DNA of 64,000 bases from the sequence record NC_031934.1; one strand, written 5' to 3'. The notes beneath the pieces were generated by a model. It worked only from the letters and a program-made list of their open reading frames with translations. It searched no databases and was not told where the DNA came from. The DNA is from Escherichia phage MX01. Both the position numbers and the translations under genes were made by a program. Below, piece after piece: positions 24,497-33,908 of the stretch (position 1 is its first letter; each line of letters begins with the position of its first letter).

Positions 24497-26620
24497 CTAC
24501 ATTTTGAATTTATTTGATAAAGAAGAGATGTCCAAAGATGCAGCAAGGATTTCCATAGCTTCGTTGCTTTCAGAAACGGATTCATTAACCAAGAATTGAC
24601 TGAATCCATCCATCAGGCGAACTTCACCAGTTTCCATCAAATGGTCACCATCGTAAACAGATTCGCTGAGCTCTGAAGGAGGTGTTACGGTAGCTTCCAT
24701 AAGGTATTTGTGAGATACTCTATCATTCATGGCAAAAGCTGCTACTTTATCAACCTTCAACAATAATCCACGCGGAAGGATAATTTCTGCTTCTTCGGCA
24801 TATTCTGTAAGGTCACCAGGAGCGATAACTTTAACTGCTTCAGCACCTCGAATAACCATACCAATTTCAGCAATTCTATCTGCAGGACCTTCAGGTGCAA
24901 TTGGATTACCAAACTCGTCTTCTTCCCATTCTACCTCTTCATCATCGACTTCACCCACATCAGATGAACTACCGCTAGCCAATTTAAACAACTCATCAGC
25001 GGAGGATAAAGAACCTTCACCACCAACAAAAACGGCTTGGTTGTCGAGGGCCATATAATTTTTACCAAATTCGCCAAAGATGTTAGGCTTTAATGAGGCT
25101 GACACAAAGTTCTTAAAGTAAAATGTTTTGTTATCGATATTATGACGCAGAATTTTGTATGGCAAATCCTGACCACGATACAAAATAGTACCCTTAGGAA
25201 GTTTAATACCCTTAGTAAATGCTGAGTCTAAATCCTTAATCAATTTAATAGCCGTTGTATTGTTTTCGGATTCAGGTTTACCTAAAAGGAACAAGTTCAT
25301 AGGAGCATATTCAGCTGCGCAATATTCAATAATAGCATTGCTTTCGTCTTTGGTTAGGCCCTTAGGTTTAATGAGCTCACCTGAATAAGCATATGCATCA
25401 CTAATAGAATCGTTAATTAGTTTATAAACGGCTTCCATAGCGAAAGCAATTCGGGATGCTTTCTCTGAAGGGGAGCCTTTAAAACGGGTACTCAGGTTAT
25501 TAACAATTTTCTTAATAATATCCAGACTATTGGTTGTATTGATTTGCGAAAGGCCACTTAAAAGTCTATCGACTTCTGTATTAAAAAATGCCATATTATT
25601 AGAGTAAATTTCAAACCCTTGTTTATCTCTATTAGCATAATTTAGTTTAAATTTACTATCAGTCATTAAAGCGTGTGTGAGAGCAATAGTGTATCTAAAG
25701 TTGGCAAGGTCCTCGCTCTTAGATTTAAACTGAGAAGCCTGGCGCATTTTGGTAATAGCACCTTTTTTAAAGTTCTGACTAATCTGTTCAATACCTTCGT
25801 TCTCAGGGCCTTCAGCCGTGTGAACCGGTACAGAAGCTTCAAACTCGTTATAAACCTGCAATTCTTTAGGGGACAAAGTTTCAGGCTCAGCAGTAGAATA
25901 CTGCGCCGCCGCTGCCATACGACGCGAAATCTTAGTACGAGTAATGACAGCCTTATCAGTACGTTTCTCTTCAACTTGTGCAATAGATGCCGCTACGGCT
26001 TCGACCTTACTTACGGCCTGGCCGGTTTTCTTAGAAACATACACTTCGCCAACTTTAGACTCAACTTTAGTATAAAGATCGGCATTAATTTCAGGCATAC
26101 CCTTGATATCTTCAATATTAGCACCACGACGTACTAAAAGAACGTAGGTATGTTTTCCGCTGAATTGGAACATGTCGTCAACAACTTTAAACTTACCACC
26201 GGTACGAGCCATAGCCAAGCGAGCTAATACGCGCTGAACGGTAGGACCTTTACCTTTCATTTTCTTAGTAGGGAAACGGAACAAAACCGCGTCCATTTTA
26301 AGTTTGTTTATTTGTTCATATATGGTATCGAAAATGGTGTTCAGTGTACCGAGTGGATCGGTACCCAAACCACCCTTGAGTTCTGCCGGAGCGCCTTTAG
26401 CAGATAAACTCATTAAGATAACATGGACGTACTTATCACCCGGCTTAACCATTTTAATAGCATCGCCTTCAGACGCGTATGAAACCATACGCGCTACTAA
26501 ATTGTCATTACCAGGAGCATGGACCGCAAAAATCTGCGGTACGCCCGAGCCAGGTTTAAGATTTGTTACTGGGTAATTTTTTTTATCGCTTTTATCAAAA
26601 ACTTCGTTTAAATTTTCCAT
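24497..26620 (-). CDS. alt: Alt-like ADP-ribosyltransferase, paralog 1
   Basis: 707 aa; N-terminal 230 aa conserved with the two neighbours and T4 Alt (PQIF, LSAKG, KLKGGLG, TKVESKVGEVY); C-terminal R-S-E signature YRGQ / FVSASL / EAEIILPRG. Confidence 0.85.
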   Translation of the reverse strand: MENLNEVFDKSDKKNYPVTNLKPGSGVPQIFAVHAPGNDNLVARMVSYASEGDAIKMVKPGDKYVHVILMSLSAKGAPAELKGGLGTDPLGTLNTIFDTIYEQINKLKMDAVLFRFPTKKMKGKGPTVQRVLARLAMARTGGKFKVVDDMFQFSGKHTYVLLVRRGANIEDIKGMPEINADLYTKVESKVGEVYVSKKTGQAVSKVEAVAASIAQVEEKRTDKAVITRTKISRRMAAAAQYSTAEPETLSPKELQVYNEFEASVPVHTAEGPENEGIEQISQNFKKGAITKMRQASQFKSKSEDLANFRYTIALTHALMTDSKFKLNYANRDKQGFEIYSNNMAFFNTEVDRLLSGLSQINTTNSLDIIKKIVNNLSTRFKGSPSEKASRIAFAMEAVYKLINDSISDAYAYSGELIKPKGLTKDESNAIIEYCAAEYAPMNLFLLGKPESENNTTAIKLIKDLDSAFTKGIKLPKGTILYRGQDLPYKILRHNIDNKTFYFKNFVSASLKPNIFGEFGKNYMALDNQAVFVGGEGSLSSADELFKLASGSSSDVGEVDDEEVEWEEDEFGNPIAPEGPADRIAEIGMVIRGAEAVKVIAPGDLTEYAEEAEIILPRGLLLKVDKVAAFAMNDRVSHKYLMEATVTPPSELSESVYDGDHLMETGEVRLMDGFSQFLVNESVSESNEAMEILAASLDISSLSNKFKM

Positions 26621-26623
26621 TAT

Positions 26624-28669
26624 TTACCCTTGGATGAATTTTTCTGGGATTTCGTCAAAATTAATACATGAAGCTAAAATAGGCATTATATCCACCTTGG
26701 TCGATTTGACAAATGAATCAAAAGACACAGGGTTGTCGGTCTCTGTTTCTACACCTTGGTAAACAACCAATTCGCCTGTTTCCATCAATGCATCGCCATC
26801 ATAGATAACCGCATTTTCTGCTAGTTGGTCTGTGGTCTGGATATCTGCTTCCAATAATTTGGTGTTGTAGTTTCCTTTATATGAGGCATCAGTAATTTTA
26901 GTAATCTTAACTGTAGTTCCACGTGGAAGAATAACCTCTTGTTCTGTTGGAGAACCTGACAATTCACCAGGCATAATTACGTTAATAGAGTCTGCACCAG
27001 AAATTTTCCAGCCGATGTTCATCATTGTATTTTCGGAACTCGTCAGCATACTTGGAAGAACAATTTCATTATCGCCTTGGAAAGATGTCCCAGCGCGATA
27101 GTCTTGATGTACTGCTGCCATTGCGACGTTTGATACCCAGCCGCCAAAGATAATTGGCTTAAGGGACGTTGATACATAGTTCCTGAAATAAAACAATTTT
27201 GAGTGTTTGATTTTATCAAAAGTGTTAACATTTAAATATTGCCCACGCCAAAGTGTAATATCAGGTGGCAATTTATGGCCAATTTCAAATGCCGCATCCA
27301 TATCGTTAATTACTTCAATTACACGCTGGCTATCAATGAATTCTGCATCCTCTTCATAATAATTACCCAACAAATAATTATTAACATCGGTATAATATTG
27401 GCCACAATAAGAAGAAATAGCCTCACGCTGCTCATACTCAAATCGATTATCGCTATAACCGGCTGTAAAATGCATAAGACTTTCTGATGCTTCATTAGCA
27501 AAGTCGGTAACAGCAGCACTTATACGTTGAGCATACTCTTGTTCCCAAAGCTCTGCTGCATATTCTGACGCATCCATATTAGGAGGGGCCTCATTCACTT
27601 TTCTTTCGATAAATGCAGCTTTGCGAAGGTTAAGAATCTCTGCACATGATTCGGCAAAAATCTGCATCTGCTTCATACTGCCAACAGGAGCACGTTTAAG
27701 TTCACGATGCATACGGTTAAAAATTGGGTCAGAGTCTTCGACTCGAATTTCTTCTTTCCAAACACCATTTGCTCGCATAGCCGTATCTGCCGCGCGCATA
27801 CGGTCCATAGTATTCGTTTCAGAAGGTCGAACAAAAATTTCTAGTTCTTCATAATCATCGATAAGTTCTGCCGTAGCCGGTCGACTAAACTTAGCAGCTT
27901 CTGCATCAATTTCGTCCCAACCTTCCGGAACTTCATCTCGAGGAGAATACTGGGCTGCGGCCACAGCACGCCTAGAAATCTTGGTAGTAGTAATAACAGC
28001 CTTATCCGTACGTTTTTCTTCGACTGCCGCTATACTAGCAGATAGTGCTTCTATTTTGGTTACTGATTGGCCGGTTTTCTTAGAAACATAAACCTCACCA
28101 ACTTTAGACTCAACCTTAGTGTAAAGGTCTGCATCAATTTCAGGCATACCTTTTATGTCCTCAATATTAGCTTGTTTACGAACCAGTAAAACGTATGTAT
28201 GTTTGCCTGTAAATTGATACATATCATCGACAACTTTAAACTTGCCGCCAGTACGAGCCATCGCCAAACGTGCCAATACACGTTGAACAGTAGGACCCTT
28301 ACCTTTCATTTTCTTGGTAGGGAAGCGGAAAAGAACTGCATCCATTTTAAGTTTATTTACCTGTTCATATACCGTATCGAAAATGGTATTCAATGTACCA
28401 AATGGGTCAGAACCTAACCCACCTTTCAACTCGGCTGGGGTACCCTTAGCAGACAAACTCATTAGAATAACGTGGACATATTTGTCGCCTGGCTTAACCA
28501 TTTTAATAGCGTCTCCTTGAGACGCATAAGATACCATACGAGCAACCAAGTTATCATTACCTGGTGCTTGGATAGAGAAAATCTGTGGAATACCGGAACC
28601 TGGTTTAAGATTTATTACTGGATAGTTTTTAGCGGAATCACTATCAAAAACTTCGTTTAAATTTTCCAT
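26624..28669 (-). CDS. Alt-like ADP-ribosyltransferase, paralog 2
   Basis: 681 aa; same conserved N-terminal domain; R-S-E signature WRGQ / YVSTSL / EQEVILPRG; divergent central region. Confidence 0.85.
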   Translation of the reverse strand: MENLNEVFDSDSAKNYPVINLKPGSGIPQIFSIQAPGNDNLVARMVSYASQGDAIKMVKPGDKYVHVILMSLSAKGTPAELKGGLGSDPFGTLNTIFDTVYEQVNKLKMDAVLFRFPTKKMKGKGPTVQRVLARLAMARTGGKFKVVDDMYQFTGKHTYVLLVRKQANIEDIKGMPEIDADLYTKVESKVGEVYVSKKTGQSVTKIEALSASIAAVEEKRTDKAVITTTKISRRAVAAAQYSPRDEVPEGWDEIDAEAAKFSRPATAELIDDYEELEIFVRPSETNTMDRMRAADTAMRANGVWKEEIRVEDSDPIFNRMHRELKRAPVGSMKQMQIFAESCAEILNLRKAAFIERKVNEAPPNMDASEYAAELWEQEYAQRISAAVTDFANEASESLMHFTAGYSDNRFEYEQREAISSYCGQYYTDVNNYLLGNYYEEDAEFIDSQRVIEVINDMDAAFEIGHKLPPDITLWRGQYLNVNTFDKIKHSKLFYFRNYVSTSLKPIIFGGWVSNVAMAAVHQDYRAGTSFQGDNEIVLPSMLTSSENTMMNIGWKISGADSINVIMPGELSGSPTEQEVILPRGTTVKITKITDASYKGNYNTKLLEADIQTTDQLAENAVIYDGDALMETGELVVYQGVETETDNPVSFDSFVKSTKVDIMPILASCINFDEIPEKFIQG

Positions 28670-28672
28670 TAT

Positions 28673-30757
28673 TTACCCTTGGATGAATTTTTCTGGGATG
28701 TCATAGAGGTCTATGCATGAAGCCAAAAGAGACAGCACATCAACCCGTGTAGATTTAACAAATGAATCAAAAGATACAGGGCTTTCGGAAGTATCGAAAT
28801 CATCTTGATATACGACCAACTCGCCGGTTTCCATTAGTACGTCACCATCATACACCACAGATTCTTGAAGCTCATCTGTTGTCATAACTTCGGCTTGGAT
28901 GAGTTTTGTATTATTAGATGTTGTTCCATCATTATTAGAAGCATCTGTTATTTTATTAACTTTGACCATTAATCCACGTGGTAGAATAACTTCAGCTTCA
29001 GTTGCTATTCCGAGATTTCCTGGATATACAACATTAACTTTATGAGCCCCATCAATCGCCCATCCTATTTGAACTTTAACGTATTCAGGATTTTCTTTAT
29101 ATGCTCTTATTTCATTAGGATTGATAGTTATTCCTTCTTCATTTTTATCGACTGTCAATTCATTGCGAACTTCAGGTTCTAAAAGACCAATACCTGCGTG
29201 GGTAACACCAAAACGTCCGAAAATGATAGGAGTTAATGAAGTAGATACAAAATTTCTAAAATAAAACACTTTATTTTTAACTAGTGCTTCGTATATAGGA
29301 GCAGTCATACTCTGTGCACGATAAACTGTGATGCCTTCTGGTATACGGTCGCCATTTTCAAAAGCAGAATCCAAATTATTAACTGCAGATTCGATATCTT
29401 TTTCACTCATAATCTCATAGTTATGAGGATTGTAACGACCTAAAAGAAGGTTATTTATATCGCCGTATCCAGAGCCACAATATTCTCTGATGCCACGCTT
29501 TTGCGATGGGGTATATTTAGAACCCTCACGAGCAATAGTAATATCAACCATTGAACCACCACCCACACCAGCAAAACTATATACGCGTTTTTTAATGAAT
29601 TTGGTCTTGGCTGCTTTCCACTTGGACTCGGTCAATTCATTCCAGAGGTCATCAGGTTGTCCTTTACGAGTTTTGTTATGCGTAGCCAACCACTCGCCTT
29701 TGTATTCTTCGAAAACGGTATTAATAGCAGAGGCATATTTTTCTAGAGCTTTAACAGATGTCAAAGGTTCGTTTTTGATGGCTGATAGGATTTTCTCTTT
29801 AATTTTCTCTTTGATTTCACCTATACCGTGAAGAGGAAACATTTTATAATCGTAATGCAATTCTTCAGCAGTACCTTCAGCTACTATATTAGCAACCTTA
29901 TTTTTAGCCGCAGGAGAATTGTTATTAGTAACCATTTCCTGGGCCTCAGGGATTAATGGAACTGTTGCCGGTTTATTAAAATCCGCTGCAGTAGCTTCAT
30001 ATTTCTTAAACAATTCACTTTCATTACGATAAGATTCCAATGATTGGCTTGCTGCAATGGCGCGCCTAGAAATCTTAGTCTTGGTTATAACCATTTTATC
30101 AGTGCGACGTTCTTCAACCTTAGCAATACTGCCGGCAATAGCAGTTTCTTTAGTAACCTGCACACCTTCTTTTTTGGAAATATAAACTTCACCGACATCA
30201 GAATCTACCTTAGTATACAATTCAGCATTAATTCCAGGCATACCTTTGATATCTTCGATATCAGCTTGTTTACGGACTACCAGGATGTAAGTATGTTTAC
30301 CGGTAAATTGGTACATAGCCGGAACCACTTTAAAACGTCCACCGGTTTTCTGTGTTACCAAACGTTGGATAATACGTTGAACGATAGGGCCTTGACCTTT
30401 CATTTTCTTGGTAGGAAAACGGAACATCACGGCATCCATACGAAGCTTTTTAACTTGGTCATAAACCACATCAAAAATAGTATTAATCGCATCTACAGGA
30501 GTAGGGCCAAGGCCACCTTTAAGTTCGGCTGGAGTACCTTTAGCTGAAAGGCTCATAAGGATAACGTGGGCATATTTATCACCCATTTTAACTTGTTTAA
30601 TAGCATCACCTTCAGAAGCGTAGGATACCATACGAGCAACTAATTGGGACTCTGCATCGCCAATCTTCCAAATCTGGGGTACTTTAAGTTTTGGGTTCAA
30701 GTTTACTGTAGGCAGAGTGCCTTCGGACTCAAACACTTCATTTAATTGTTCGGTCAT
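28673..30757 (-). CDS. Alt-like ADP-ribosyltransferase, paralog 3
   Basis: 694 aa; same conserved N-terminal domain; R-S-E signature YRAQ / FVSTSL / EAEVILPRG; C-terminal tail shared with paralog 2. Confidence 0.85.
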   Translation of the reverse strand: MTEQLNEVFESEGTLPTVNLNPKLKVPQIWKIGDAESQLVARMVSYASEGDAIKQVKMGDKYAHVILMSLSAKGTPAELKGGLGPTPVDAINTIFDVVYDQVKKLRMDAVMFRFPTKKMKGQGPIVQRIIQRLVTQKTGGRFKVVPAMYQFTGKHTYILVVRKQADIEDIKGMPGINAELYTKVDSDVGEVYISKKEGVQVTKETAIAGSIAKVEERRTDKMVITKTKISRRAIAASQSLESYRNESELFKKYEATAADFNKPATVPLIPEAQEMVTNNNSPAAKNKVANIVAEGTAEELHYDYKMFPLHGIGEIKEKIKEKILSAIKNEPLTSVKALEKYASAINTVFEEYKGEWLATHNKTRKGQPDDLWNELTESKWKAAKTKFIKKRVYSFAGVGGGSMVDITIAREGSKYTPSQKRGIREYCGSGYGDINNLLLGRYNPHNYEIMSEKDIESAVNNLDSAFENGDRIPEGITVYRAQSMTAPIYEALVKNKVFYFRNFVSTSLTPIIFGRFGVTHAGIGLLEPEVRNELTVDKNEEGITINPNEIRAYKENPEYVKVQIGWAIDGAHKVNVVYPGNLGIATEAEVILPRGLMVKVNKITDASNNDGTTSNNTKLIQAEVMTTDELQESVVYDGDVLMETGELVVYQDDFDTSESPVSFDSFVKSTRVDVLSLLASCIDLYDIPEKFIQG

Positions 30758-31032: not shown

Positions 31033-32515
31033 ATGTATCAGCTTCTGTTTTATCGAAACGCCAACCTTTAATGATTGGAAGGAAAATACCTACAGTATCG
31101 GTACGTCCTTTAGAATGAACCCAACCATTACATTCACAGTCAGCAATACGTCCAATCAACTTACCTTCACGAGCTTGTTTCATAAGAAGTTCACGGTCTA
31201 AATCAGGACGGTCTTCCAATGGAATCAATACTTTTTTACCTGATTTATCTTTCTTATGGGTGGTATCTTTAAAGCCTGAACCACAGTCGCTTGTAATTCG
31301 ACGACAACGTGATACCAACTCGACACCACCTAGCTTGTTAGGGTCCTTCGAGTGTTCATAATAACCCACCACTTCTAAAGCAATATCGATTACTTCTTTG
31401 AACTTGATAAGATTCTTAGAACGACGGTTTTCCCAGTAGGAGTCCATGTTCTTAAGGATAATGCCTTCCAGACCCTGGTCGACATATTTCTTATAAACGA
31501 CTTTAGCTTCTTCAAGATTATTAACCCACCGGTTTTCGATAGCTTCAACACGCGTTGTACCATGCAATACGACATTATGAGCAACCATAAGTTCTAAGGC
31601 TGTAAAGCGTACATCATACTTATCGCCTTTAATTTTACCTTCGGAATATACGACATCCAATGGGACATAATCCCATGCCTGTAATACCATACCAGCGGCT
31701 TCAGTAGCCGAAATAGTTCCTTGAAGAGCTTTGTTAGCCAAGCCATTTGACGTAGAACGATTGGCGACAGTTTGGAATTCCTTAGCCTTACTTAATTCAG
31801 GAAGTTCCTCGTCAAACATACTAAACAAATCATTAGATGCTTTAGGTTCTACCTTAGGAGTATGGTAAACTAATTCGCCATCAATCATAACGCCATTAGG
31901 ATGGCGTTGTCGAGCTTCTTCGGTCATGGCCATTAATTCAGCCGCCAAAAGATTAAGCCCTTGATATTCGTTACCACCACGAGTAAGGAATGTCACACCA
32001 TCGTTACGAACTTCGGCAAAACAACGAGCACCATCAGCTTTTAATTGAGCAAACGCTGGCCATTTAATATTTTTCTTAATCAAAGCTTCATCATAAGAAC
32101 TCGCCAACATCTGCGGTTGTTCAGGGATTAAACCTTTCCAAACCTTGTTAGCAATAGAAATCGATGCACCACATTCAAGGTCGCGCATCATTACACGACG
32201 TAATACCTCGGCATCCGGGGCCTTAGCATCAGCAATGATTTGAGCCAGTTCTTCAATAGCCGCATTACCCGTAATCTTACGTGTGGCTAATGTGAATTCA
32301 GCGAAATCAAGAAGGTCTTCAAGAGTAATCATACCAAAGGATTGAGATGTAAATCCAGGTTCTGGCCACTTTTTAATACCGTAGTTCAGACGACGGGTAT
32401 AAGCCATACGATAAACACGTTTCAGAAGCTCATTGTCCTTTTCACGAGCAATAATGGCTTCTTTAGCTTTAGTAGAATCAATAGCAGCAATTTCGTTTAA
32501 AATATCTAAAATCAT
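30992..32515 (-). CDS. 30: ATP-dependent DNA ligase gp30
   Basis: Start at internal ATG (MILDILNEI..., GAGGTGA RBS) matching T4 ligase N-terminus MILKILNEI; KADGARC adenylation motif; 507 aa. Confidence 0.95.
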   Translation of the reverse strand: MILDILNEIAAIDSTKAKEAIIAREKDNELLKRVYRMAYTRRLNYGIKKWPEPGFTSQSFGMITLEDLLDFAEFTLATRKITGNAAIEELAQIIADAKAPDAEVLRRVMMRDLECGASISIANKVWKGLIPEQPQMLASSYDEALIKKNIKWPAFAQLKADGARCFAEVRNDGVTFLTRGGNEYQGLNLLAAELMAMTEEARQRHPNGVMIDGELVYHTPKVEPKASNDLFSMFDEELPELSKAKEFQTVANRSTSNGLANKALQGTISATEAAGMVLQAWDYVPLDVVYSEGKIKGDKYDVRFTALELMVAHNVVLHGTTRVEAIENRWVNNLEEAKVVYKKYVDQGLEGIILKNMDSYWENRRSKNLIKFKEVIDIALEVVGYYEHSKDPNKLGGVELVSRCRRITSDCGSGFKDTTHKKDKSGKKVLIPLEDRPDLDRELLMKQAREGKLIGRIADCECNGWVHSKGRTDTVGIFLPIIKGWRFDKTEADTFEDVFGDWSQTGL

Positions 32516-32525
32516 AATCACCTCA

Positions 32526-32804
32526 TTAGTCATGGATTCTATTATAAGCCACATCAGCCAAAAGCAAGTCTAATCGCTTATGATAAGAGAACACAAATCT
32601 CATTCGCCCATCAGATTTGAACTTGGACATAAAGTGGACATAAATGAATCCCTGTTCGACGCATTCGCGCCAAACAGGATGGTCTTTAGCCGGATTTACA
32701 TCAAATGAGTAATCATGATTCACATGACGAATAAACTGGTTTACATGACCATAATCCATTGTAGTGGTAGGACCATAGTCTGAAATTGTATGAACTACAA
32801 ACAT
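32526..32804 (-). CDS. Hypothetical protein (30.1 slot)
   Basis: Start at internal ATG with GAGG RBS; no recognised domain. Confidence 0.5.
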   Translation of the reverse strand: MFVVHTISDYGPTTTMDYGHVNQFIRHVNHDYSFDVNPAKDHPVWRECVEQGFIYVHFMSKFKSDGRMRFVFSYHKRLDLLLADVAYNRIHD

Positions 32805-32805
32805 A

Positions 32806-33444
32806 TTAACCTCGAGCAATCCATTCAACTGCGGCATTATTACGAAGGGATTCGATTGCTGCGATATCGTCCCATGAATTAACCTTTACGGCTAAATTAG
32901 GTTTAAAGTCACGTTCACCACGAGCTAACCAATAAACTTGGATATCCATGAGAACATTAGATGCAGCATCACAGTGGTGAGCCAAATCATCAACATAAAA
33001 CTTAATACGTTTACCGTACGTATTTTTAGCTCTTATGAAGAGGTCTTCTTTTGATTCTGAATGACCACACATCAGAATCTCCTTGAATGCGCCAGGGAAC
33101 AAAGCATTCAAATTGAATTGTCTATTCAGCAGTGCATCAATTGAGTCGCCTAGCGCAGTCACGGCTACAAAATCGAAGTCTTTTTTGAGCTTGTTGATAT
33201 GTTTTAATGCGTCCATGTAAGGAGACAGATAACGAATAAAATCTGACTGATTGTACTTCTCGATTAAACGAGCGCCTAATTCATTATCACAATTAAACAG
33301 CTCACCAGGAGATAAGAAACGTTCGTCCTGAATCATATTCAAAATATGTTCTAAAGGCAAATTATATTTCTGTGCGAAATAAGGCAAGCCGGACTGCCAA
33401 CTTAAACATACTCCATCGATATCTGTTAAGATAACTGGTTTCAT
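32806..33444 (-). CDS. HAD-superfamily hydrolase-like protein (possible 5'(3')-deoxyribonucleotidase-type)
   Basis: 212 aa; N-terminal LTDIDGV (DxDG motif I of HAD phosphatases). Confidence 0.5.
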   Translation of the reverse strand: MKPVILTDIDGVCLSWQSGLPYFAQKYNLPLEHILNMIQDERFLSPGELFNCDNELGARLIEKYNQSDFIRYLSPYMDALKHINKLKKDFDFVAVTALGDSIDALLNRQFNLNALFPGAFKEILMCGHSESKEDLFIRAKNTYGKRIKFYVDDLAHHCDAASNVLMDIQVYWLARGERDFKPNLAVKVNSWDDIAAIESLRNNAAVEWIARG

Positions 33445-33908
33445 AATAAATCTCTCAATTTGTTTAGGATGTCGATAAACTCTTTTTCAGTTAGTATTGT
33501 ATCACATTCTGTAAGGTGGCTCGCCATCGAATGCTTTAAAACTTTGCCCTTTGTAGCTTGTAATGCGTCGCGGAATCCTTTGTTTTGGAGCGCTGCTTCA
33601 AAATATGCATTTGTATACAACTCTTTCCATGATGTAGAGTATCTTGAAAAGGGAATTCCAAGCCAGAAAAGCGTCCCACGGTCCGCAGCTCTTGCATAAG
33701 CTCTTCCAGTTTGTTGTGCGGCCAGACCGGACATCCTAAATATACGTTTTTGTTGTTCATGATTTCTCACCTTACACCCTTGGAGGAATCCTTCGAGTCC
33801 ACCAAATTGGATACCATCCATAACGAAAGGCCATTTAGCAAAGTTACTTAATGCACACGATGGCCACGGAAAATTACTTCTGATTTCTAACTCAGACATC
33901 TTTGACAC
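33441..33908 (-). CDS. NADAR/YbiA-like domain protein
   Basis: 155 aa; LSNFAKWPFVMDGIQFGGLEGFLQGCK matches the FSNFA.WP...DG...E..FQ core of the YbiA/NADAR family as I recall it. Confidence 0.6.
   Translation of the reverse strand: MSKMSELEIRSNFPWPSCALSNFAKWPFVMDGIQFGGLEGFLQGCKVRNHEQQKRIFRMSGLAAQQTGRAYARAADRGTLFWLGIPFSRYSTSWKELYTNAYFEAALQNKGFRDALQATKGKVLKHSMASHLTECDTILTEKEFIDILNKLRDLL

Follow-up and report, generated by a model that had tools for sequence, protein, structure and literature searches.

The locus studied here occupies positions 32806-33908 of a 64,000-nucleotide stretch of Escherichia phage MX01 (NC_031934.1), and this whole stretch is called the window below. MX01 is a T4-like coliphage, and the 2.5 kb around the locus are 98-99% identical to Enterobacteria phage IME281 and to phages Bp7, QL01, and WG01. 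The gene order at the locus is that of the 30.x cluster of T4, with a NADAR gene placed between its neighbors 30.4 and 30.2. Two overlapping open reading frames had been reported in the initial annotation, at 32806..33444 and 33441..33908, and both are indeed present on the minus strand with an overlap of 4 nt, in which the ATG of gene 30.2 (33444-33442) overlaps the TGA of gene 30.3 (33443-33441) to form the tetranucleotide ATGA. Such an ATGA stop/start overlap is an arrangement typical of translational coupling. In T4, genes 30.3 and 30.2 share an identical 4-nt overlap, and the same is found in 14 of the 80 viral loci surveyed in this work, nearly all of them from close T4/JS98-type relatives.

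The end of the NADAR reading frame at 33441 stands as initially annotated, but its start had to be revised. Position 33908 is a GTG, the mechanical first start of the frame, and would add three residues to the product of the ATG at 33899. The product of ATG 33899 begins with MSELEIR..., as T4 gp30.3 and most homologs do, and this start also restores the 8-nt overlap with gene 30.4 that is seen in T4. Residue numbers are therefore counted from ATG 33899, and the GTG numbering is higher by three (Glu36 = Glu39). A scan for promoters and terminators between 30700 and 37000 found fewer promoter-like sites than in shuffled sequences and no signal that would set 30.3 apart from 30.2. The features of the locus and of the neighboring Alt-type genes are collected in Table 1.

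Table 1. Positions in the MX01 window of the two genes of the locus, their predicted functional residues, and the neighboring Alt-type genes.
Feature	Position	Strand	Remarks
Three tandem Alt-type ADP-ribosyltransferase paralogs	24497-26620, 26624-28669, 28673-30757	minus	PF03496
Gene 30.2, predicted HAD-superfamily phosphatase with helical cap domain	32806..33444	minus	212 aa
HAD motif IV, Asp152-Asp153, predicted Mg2+ ligands	32986..32991	minus	Invariant in homologs; end of strand 147-152
HAD motif III, Lys132	33049..33051	minus	Invariant in 38 homologs and in distant members
HAD motif II, Thr96	33157..33159	minus	T96 at least 90% conserved, A97 invariant; end of strand 91-96
HAD motif I, D8-I-D10, predicted nucleophile Asp and acid/base Asp at +2	33415..33423	minus	D8, D10, and G11 invariant in 38 homologs
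ATGA overlap (30.3 stop / 30.2 start)	33441..33444	minus	4 nt; read from the sequence
Gene 30.3 / adfN, phage-type NADAR, predicted DNA guanine ADP-ribosylglycohydrolase	33441..33899	minus	152 aa; ATG 33899
NADAR C-terminal helix codons, residues 138-151	33444..33485	minus	Model helix 141-154 in GTG numbering
His123 codon, replaces the last-strand Glu/Asp of NADARs	33531..33533	minus	Invariant in family
Lys43 codon, predicted phosphate-binding catalytic residue, equivalent to T4 AdfN K43	33771..33773	minus	Nearly invariant; aligned to YbiA Lys
Glu36 codon, predicted catalytic residue, equivalent to T4 AdfN E36	33792..33794	minus	Invariant in family; aligned to YbiA Glu

The product of the upstream gene, gp30.3, matched the Pfam family PF08010 (Bacteriophage protein GP30.3, Phage_30_3) with an E value of 4e-64 (215 bits, cut-off 36) over profile positions 2-138 of 138, and it is 85% identical to T4 gp30.3 over the full 152 residues, without gaps to the last residue. 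In the literature, PF08010 counts as the phage-encoded branch of the NADAR superfamily (PMC11543638, PMC11125620). The Pfam NADAR model PF08719 gave no match to the MX01 protein at E <= 0.1, TIGR02464 gave 13.9 bits against a cut-off of 73.7 (E 0.049), and a comparison of the single sequence with E. coli YbiA was marginal (E 0.18). Because the YbiA and TIGR02464 matches were marginal and PF08719 was silent, the NADAR assignment was tested independently. Distant relatives of gp30.3 reached 17-21 bits with PF08719, which is below its cut-off of 35.1. When profiles of the gp30.3 family were run against the sequences of the PDB, YbiA was the sole significant match (E 8.8e-4 and 1.7e-4), and in these profile alignments the Glu and Lys of the gp30.3 family line up with their catalytic counterparts in YbiA. 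An AlphaFold2 model of MX01 gp30.3 (pLDDT 89.9, pTM 0.84) confirmed the NADAR fold.

Membership in the YbiA/NADAR family, which the initial annotation had proposed, is thus borne out by the PF08010 match, the YbiA profile match, the fold, and the catalytic residues. The motif by which the family had been recognized, an FSNFA-WP...DG...E core, is present in the upstream open reading frame as LSNFAKWPFVMDGIQFGGLEGF (with LSNFAKWPFVMDG...LEGF), but its first residue is L and not F in MX01, FSNFA being the version found in E. coli YbiA. The open reading frame 33441..33899 is the ortholog of T4 gene 30.3 (adfN) and encodes a minimal NADAR-fold enzyme. The alternative-frame open reading frame 30.3' of T4 was considered as a second coding layer and rejected; it is open in MX01, but its conservation is 61%, versus 85% for the main frame, and it is closed in divergent relatives.

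Residue conservation was examined in an alignment of the gp30.3 family that extends down to 36% identity. A loss of conserved catalytic residues, which would speak against the assignment, was not seen, Glu36, Lys43, and His123 all being kept. The catalytic Glu and Lys of PnNADAR are E43 and K50, and their T4 counterparts are E36 and K43. His123, within the sequence LKHS, is shared by all 12 diverse members compared, and in the model it comes immediately after the last beta strand (residues 123-125 in GTG numbering); a His in place of the last-strand Glu/Asp is a hallmark of the phage NADARs (PMC11543638, PMC11125620). The C-terminal helix is intact in MX01, both in the model and in the ungapped alignment with T4. 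In the inactive allele of phage RB69 this region is missing, and a 15-residue truncation lowers activity (PMC11825919).

The downstream product, gp30.2, matched the phage protein family phrog_420 with an E value of 1.5e-70, and its 212 residues are 74% identical to T4 gp30.2 (278 aa) over residues 1-191. The HAD phosphatase motif I that had been noted in this frame as LTDIDGV is present (MKPVILTDIDGVCLSW), and the remaining three HAD motifs as well as the fold were confirmed. In a model predicted from an alignment in which the T4 row was left out (pLDDT 95), the protein adopts the Rossmann-like HAD core fold, motifs II, III, and IV are each found where expected, at the end of a core strand, and a helical cap with helices in residues 16-86 is inserted between motifs I and II. 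An exhaustive profile search showed that the family comprises 1247 representative clusters, and D8, D10, R108, K132, and D153 are invariant in 49 distant members with 20-35% identity. The second Asp of HAD motif I goes with phosphoryl transfer rather than with dehalogenation, and HAD caps accompany small-molecule substrates, the Pnkp-type HAD domain being uncapped. The gene is the ortholog of T4 gene 30.2, and we infer that its product is a HAD-superfamily phosphomonoesterase that depends on Mg2+ and carries a helical cap.

The substrate class of gp30.2 was approached through its distant relatives. Among the 49 distant members, NT5C was the most common Pfam match (18 members, best E 4e-10), followed by the generic HAD models PF00702 and PF13419, which matched 12 and 11 members, respectively. 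MX01 gp30.2 itself matched neither PF00702 nor PF13419, and with the NT5C model PF06941 it reached 13.4 bits against a cut-off of 24.8 (E 0.074). Searches of the PDB with the single sequence and with a profile yielded a marginal deoxyribonucleotidase match only (E 0.25 and 0.056). Assignment of gp30.2 to NT5C was rejected, its PF06941 score being sub-threshold and its structure scores indistinguishable from those with other capped HADs. Nine longer proteins of the gp30.2 family carry no informative partner domain. In a literature search we found no publication on gp30.2 and no biochemical data for any gp30.2 protein, other matches to "30.2" being journal volume numbers. Given the cap and the distant kinship to the 5'(3')-deoxyribonucleotidases, the substrate of gp30.2 would be small and phosphorylated, and probably a nucleotide; because NT5C stays below threshold and the structural comparison fits NT5C and other capped HADs alike, this substrate class is proposed tentatively.

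The profile searches that had been suggested for both genes, against NADAR/DUF1768 and against HAD, therefore gave a divided outcome: PF08010 matched at the E value given above, and the thresholds of PF08719, TIGR02464, PF00702, and PF13419 were not reached. Because PF08719 and the generic HAD models are silent and TIGR02464 and NT5C are sub-threshold, our assignments come from family profiles, structure, and literature.

For gp30.3, the literature is extensive. Schuller et al. (2023) reported that NADARs reverse the guanine ADP-ribosylation made by DarT1 and named the phage His branch (PMC11543638). In the work of Cihlova et al. (2024), purified T4 NADAR (gp30.3) stripped guanine-linked ADP-ribose from DNA in vitro, but uninfected cells were not protected by it against DarT1 (PMC11125620). 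Johannesman et al. (2025) identified gene 30.3 as the determinant by which T-even phages resist DarTG1, and they renamed it adfN; in their work adfN was necessary for DarTG1 resistance and was sufficient in RB69, a phage with a frameshifted gp30.3 allele that was rescued by ectopic AdfN, the T4 AdfN variants E36A and K43A and a C-terminal truncation had reduced activity, and purified T4 AdfN alone removed ADP-ribose from DarT1-modified DNA in vitro (PMC11825919). A 2026 paper described the T4 NADAR as active on guanine-linked and inactive on cytosine-linked ADP-ribose, and NADARs are documented to act on guanine-linked ADP-ribose in DNA or RNA, some non-phage NADARs also acting on cytosine-linked ADP-ribose (PMC12945103).

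The initial annotation had suggested that a NADAR enzyme could reverse DarT-type ADP-ribosylation of phage DNA, and for the 85%-identical T4 AdfN this has been shown (PMC11825919). Both the NADAR assignment and the DarT hypothesis for 30.3 are correct and already in the literature. As judged from sequence, the T4 activity and the anti-DarTG1 role would carry over to MX01 gp30.3, the basis being 85% identity and the conserved catalytic residues. In the predicted mechanism, host DarT1, the toxin of the DarTG1 system, would ADP-ribosylate replicating phage DNA, gp30.3 would hydrolyze the N-glycosidic bond that joins ADP-ribose to guanine N2 in that DNA, and removal of the adduct would allow phage replication to continue. 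No DarT1 gene was found beside the MX01 NADAR gene, the nearby ADP-ribosyltransferases being of the Alt type (PF03496), and PADLOC gave no hits. Like the T4 gene, the MX01 NADAR gene is thus an antitoxin-like orphan.

Comparison with the closest known systems places the MX01 gene next to T4 adfN. It has the same place between 30.4 and 30.2, the same 8-nt and 4-nt overlaps, and its product keeps Glu36, Lys43, the phage-type His123, and the C-terminal helix. It differs from T4 AdfN by 23 substitutions and belongs to a phage of a different T4-like group (closest to IME281, Bp7, and QL01). Unlike the NADAR antitoxins of the DarG1 type that are associated with DarT1 (Geobacter lovleyi, PDB 8bat; E. 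coli C7), the phage protein is a bare core without an N-terminal extension, it has His in place of the catalytic Asp of DarG1, and its gene is not beside a DarT toxin gene; also unlike these antitoxins, the T4 phage NADAR is no antitoxin in uninfected cells. E. coli YbiA (PDB 2b3w; TIGR02464/PF08719) shares 21% identity and has a Glu as its last-strand residue. YbiA is a housekeeping N-glycosidase of riboflavin intermediates. MX01 gp30.2 resembles T4 gp30.2 (phrog_420) in its position and in its overlap with 30.3, and its HAD motif residues lie within the T4-alignable region, but it has no counterpart of the Pro/Asn/Tyr-rich C-terminal tail of about 85 residues. With the NT5C 5'(3')-deoxyribonucleotidases (cdN/mdN, PDB 2jao and 6g2n; 3bwv), gp30.2 shares 13-18% identity, and other capped HAD phosphatases and dehalogenases fit its structure as well as NT5C does.

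To learn whether 30.3 and 30.2 form a functional pair, we surveyed 80 viral contigs with a gp30.3-type NADAR and examined the neighbors within 4 kb. A gp30.2-type HAD was found within this distance in 20 of the 80 loci and was absent from 60, and the genes directly downstream of the NADAR gene fell into 45 unrelated clusters. In Klebsiella phages of the genus Jiaodavirus, the 30.x cluster has 30.2 beside 30.1, the ligase gene, and Alt, without 30.3, and the NADAR gene is found apart from 30.2, inside a tRNA gene cluster (KPV15 genome). Phages outside the Straboviridae that encode this NADAR (Agrobacterium, Caulobacter, and Brevundimonas phages) have no HAD neighbor, and in the Caulobacter and Brevundimonas phages the NADAR gene lies one small open reading frame away from an RNA ligase gene. 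A KVP40-like Vibrio phage has, amid other flanking genes, a NADAR gene overlapping the gene for a different, short HAD of the NT5C family (PF06941, E 1e-8), which hints at a recurrent association. Across phage genomes, the two genes have almost the same genus-level distribution (1509 against 1446 records).

A conserved NADAR-HAD operon was rejected on the survey of 80 loci together with the separation in Jiaodavirus. The NADAR/HAD pair of the initial annotation accordingly holds as a positional pair in one lineage and does not hold as a conserved two-enzyme module. The pairing of 30.3 and 30.2 is better described as inherited, lineage-specific synteny, and the evidence against a functional pair is stronger than the evidence for it. 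Given the inherited T4-type gene order, 30.3 and 30.2 would be co-transcribed and possibly translationally coupled.

The same inherited order bears on the Alt-type genes. Three open reading frames of 707, 681, and 694 aa in the window match PF03496 (E 3.9e-17, 2e-21, and 8.8e-36), and the nearest of them ends 2.7 kb from the NADAR gene on the same strand, in agreement with the alt paralogs that the initial annotation had placed about 3 kb away and had combined with the NADAR into a set of writers and a putative eraser or processor of ADP-ribosylation. Alt modifies arginine residues of host proteins. The proximity of NADAR and Alt is ordinary T4 gene order, and on our analysis a main role of the NADAR as eraser for the neighboring Alt enzymes would carry low weight.

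Taken together, our results very probably describe a locus in which gene 30.3 is adfN and acts in guanine de-ADP-ribosylation against DarT1, gene 30.2 encodes a HAD phosphomonoesterase, and the two genes act independently. For gp30.3, the main alternative is that its principal role concerns soluble ADP-ribose immune signals, or the reversal or editing of the phage's own ADP-ribosyltransferase marks (those of the Alt paralogs or of ModA/ModB). The short distance to three Alt genes on the same strand would suit this, as would the work of Iyer et al. (2022), in which the T4-like NADARs are early genes encoded alongside ADP-ribosyltransferases and soluble ADP-ribose derivatives are the favored substrates (PMC9503650); NADARs also strip guanine-ADP-ribose from RNA (PMC12945103), and the Caulobacter-type jumbo phages carry a NADAR beside an RNA ligase. 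We nevertheless consider such a main role unlikely, since T4 genetics show that DarTG1 resistance requires adfN, whose product removes the DNA adducts made by DarT1 (PMC11825919), and since reported NADAR substrates are base-linked ADP-ribose on nucleic acids (PMC12945103), whereas the target of Alt is protein arginine. Term searches of PMC11543638 found no NADAR test on protein-linked ADP-ribose. The proximity to alt, being T4 gene order, is lost by the NADAR gene of Jiaodavirus. Databases contain many gp30.3 genes that are disrupted, truncated, or fused, so that the MX01 gene might be an inactive allele like that of RB69, leaving the locus without a counter-defense function; with a full-length gene, ungapped against T4 to the last residue, and with E36, K43, H123, and the C-terminal helix kept, we regard this as extremely improbable.

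A different set of alternatives concerns gp30.2. AdfN is fully effective in T-even infections only, from which an additional T-even potentiating factor has been postulated (PMC11825919), and this observation, together with the failure of T4 AdfN to rescue uninfected cells, suggests that a further phage factor may be needed. In a two-enzyme module, gp30.2 might be that factor, or it might process the released ADP-ribose or a phosphorylated derivative. The 4-nt gene overlap in MX01, T4, and 14 viral loci, the near-identical genus-level distribution of the two genes, and the short NT5C-type HAD that overlaps a NADAR gene in the KVP40-like phage despite its other flanks are all consistent with such a module, and RB69, which is rescued by ectopic AdfN, falls within the phage group that carries 30.2. 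However, in three-quarters of the surveyed loci no gp30.2-type HAD is encoded within 4 kb of the NADAR, and what follows the NADAR gene varies greatly among these loci. In Jiaodavirus the NADAR gene and 30.2 belong to separate clusters, and the NADARs outside the Straboviridae are without a HAD neighbor. Because both genes are near-universal in T4-like phages, their co-occurrence is confounded by ancestry. Purified AdfN works alone in vitro, in none of the nine longer gp30.2-family members is the HAD fused to an ADP-ribose-related domain, and gp30.2 is just one of roughly 100 T4 genes without assigned function. We therefore hold the module to be quite improbable, and we give the same slim chance to gp30.2 being the T-even factor for AdfN or a second counter-defense enzyme that dephosphorylates an ADP-ribose- or nucleotide-derived product. 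Slightly less probable still is that gp30.2 is a nucleic-acid end-processing 3'-phosphatase, similar to the HAD domain of T4 polynucleotide kinase, that prepares nicks for the ligase encoded by gene 30. Gene 30.2 does lie two genes upstream of the ligase gene in every T4-like arrangement seen, Jiaodavirus included, and one distant family member has a weak match to PF25109 (HAD_PNKP), but the gp30.2 model has the helical cap that Pnkp-type domains do not have, and NT5C, not PNKP, is the most common Pfam match among its relatives. Most likely, then, gp30.3 and gp30.2 do not depend on one another in their action, nor does either depend on the Alt ADP-ribosyltransferases encoded nearby.

Most of what the locus encodes is known biology, AdfN having been characterized in T4 and its HAD partner being a conserved enzyme of a familiar kind. 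The practical gain lies in annotation, since gene 30.3 is still listed as "hypothetical protein" in the closest GenBank records. MX01 carries an intact copy of AdfN, the protein that enables T-even phages to multiply in bacteria defended by DarTG1, and an intact adfN helps to predict the host range of MX01 with respect to E. coli strains that bear DarTG1. The potentially new part of the locus is whether 30.3 and 30.2 form a functional pair, and nothing else. gp30.2 is a very widespread, predicted catalytic HAD of T4-like phages whose gene directly follows adfN in a lineage with a postulated AdfN helper, and a possible contribution of gp30.2 to the infection-specific activity of AdfN is a lead that bears on the published question of the helper factor. 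If it proved true, 30.3 and 30.2 would constitute a two-step detoxification cassette in phages of the T4, JS98, and RB69 types.

Two phages, CcrColossus of Caulobacter (L003 6001-7956) and Domovoi of Brevundimonas (L005 6001-8054), have an RNA ligase gene downstream of the gp30.3-type NADAR gene, with one small ORF between them, and a nucleotidyltransferase gene nearby, a context that is RNA-repair-like and differs from that in T4. In a KVP40-like Vibrio phage (L004 6001-6952), the NADAR gene shares 14 nt with an overlapping gene for a short HAD of the NT5C family (167 aa), after which gp47/gp46-like nuclease genes are found; this arrangement is an independent-looking second NADAR-HAD juxtaposition, besides the T4-type one. 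The Jiaodavirus 30.x cluster, as seen in Klebsiella phage Mineola (L086), has the order 30.5-like gene, small ORF, 30.2, 30.1, ligase, and Alt, and 30.3 is absent from it. The Jiaodavirus NADAR gene (KPV15, L087 3501-3950) was found in the middle of a tRNA gene cluster.

The predicted HAD-type phosphatase gp30.2 of T4 (L001 7475-8311, 278 aa) carries a Pro/Asn/Tyr-rich C-terminal tail of about 85 residues, whereas gp30.2 of the window (32806-33444, 212 aa) lacks it. Homologues of gp30.2 form two size classes, of 260-347 aa with the tail and of about 200-220 aa without it, and in the tailed proteins a conserved GIEYL.N.PT-like stretch often makes up the terminal part. At the position of the three Alt paralogs of the window, T4 encodes a single alt gene and the remnants alt.-1 and alt.-2.

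For 30.3, 30.1, and the ligase gene, the starts assigned by mechanical ORF calling lie beyond the likely true starts.

Coordinates of start codons and additional features in the window
Feature	Position	Strand	Description
Gene 30.3 start	33899-33908		GTG 33908 by ORF calling; ATG 33899 by homology
Gene 30.1 start	32804-32837		ATG 32837 by ORF calling; probable start ATG 32804, directly after the 30.2 stop
Ligase start	~32515-32554		Called ORF has ~13 extra codons before the T4-like start MILDILNEIA
30.3'-equivalent ORF	33536-33760	-	74 aa, open frame inside 30.3; same ORF annotated as 30.3' in T4
Alt-type ADP-ribosyltransferase paralogs	24497-30757	-	Three in tandem, full-length; 707, 681, and 694 aa

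Comparing the window with T4, amino acid identity is 61% for the 30.3' frame and 85% for the main frame of 30.3, and divergent gp30.3 genes do not keep the 30.3' frame open. Given this lower conservation and the closed frame in divergent genes, no sign of selection on the 30.3' frame is seen. The T4 NADAR construct has been described as "gp30.3; residues 1-208" (Toxins 2024, methods, PMC11125620), whereas gp30.3 in the T4 record (L001 8308-8766) has 152 residues.

Many gp30.3 genes in the databases (homologues P0013-P0022 and H55, the latter from Escherichia phage vB_EcoM-RPN226) are truncated or fused to adjacent genes, such as 30.7 or DUF-type ORFs. This suggests that adfN is often deleted or disrupted among natural T4-like phages, as in RB69.
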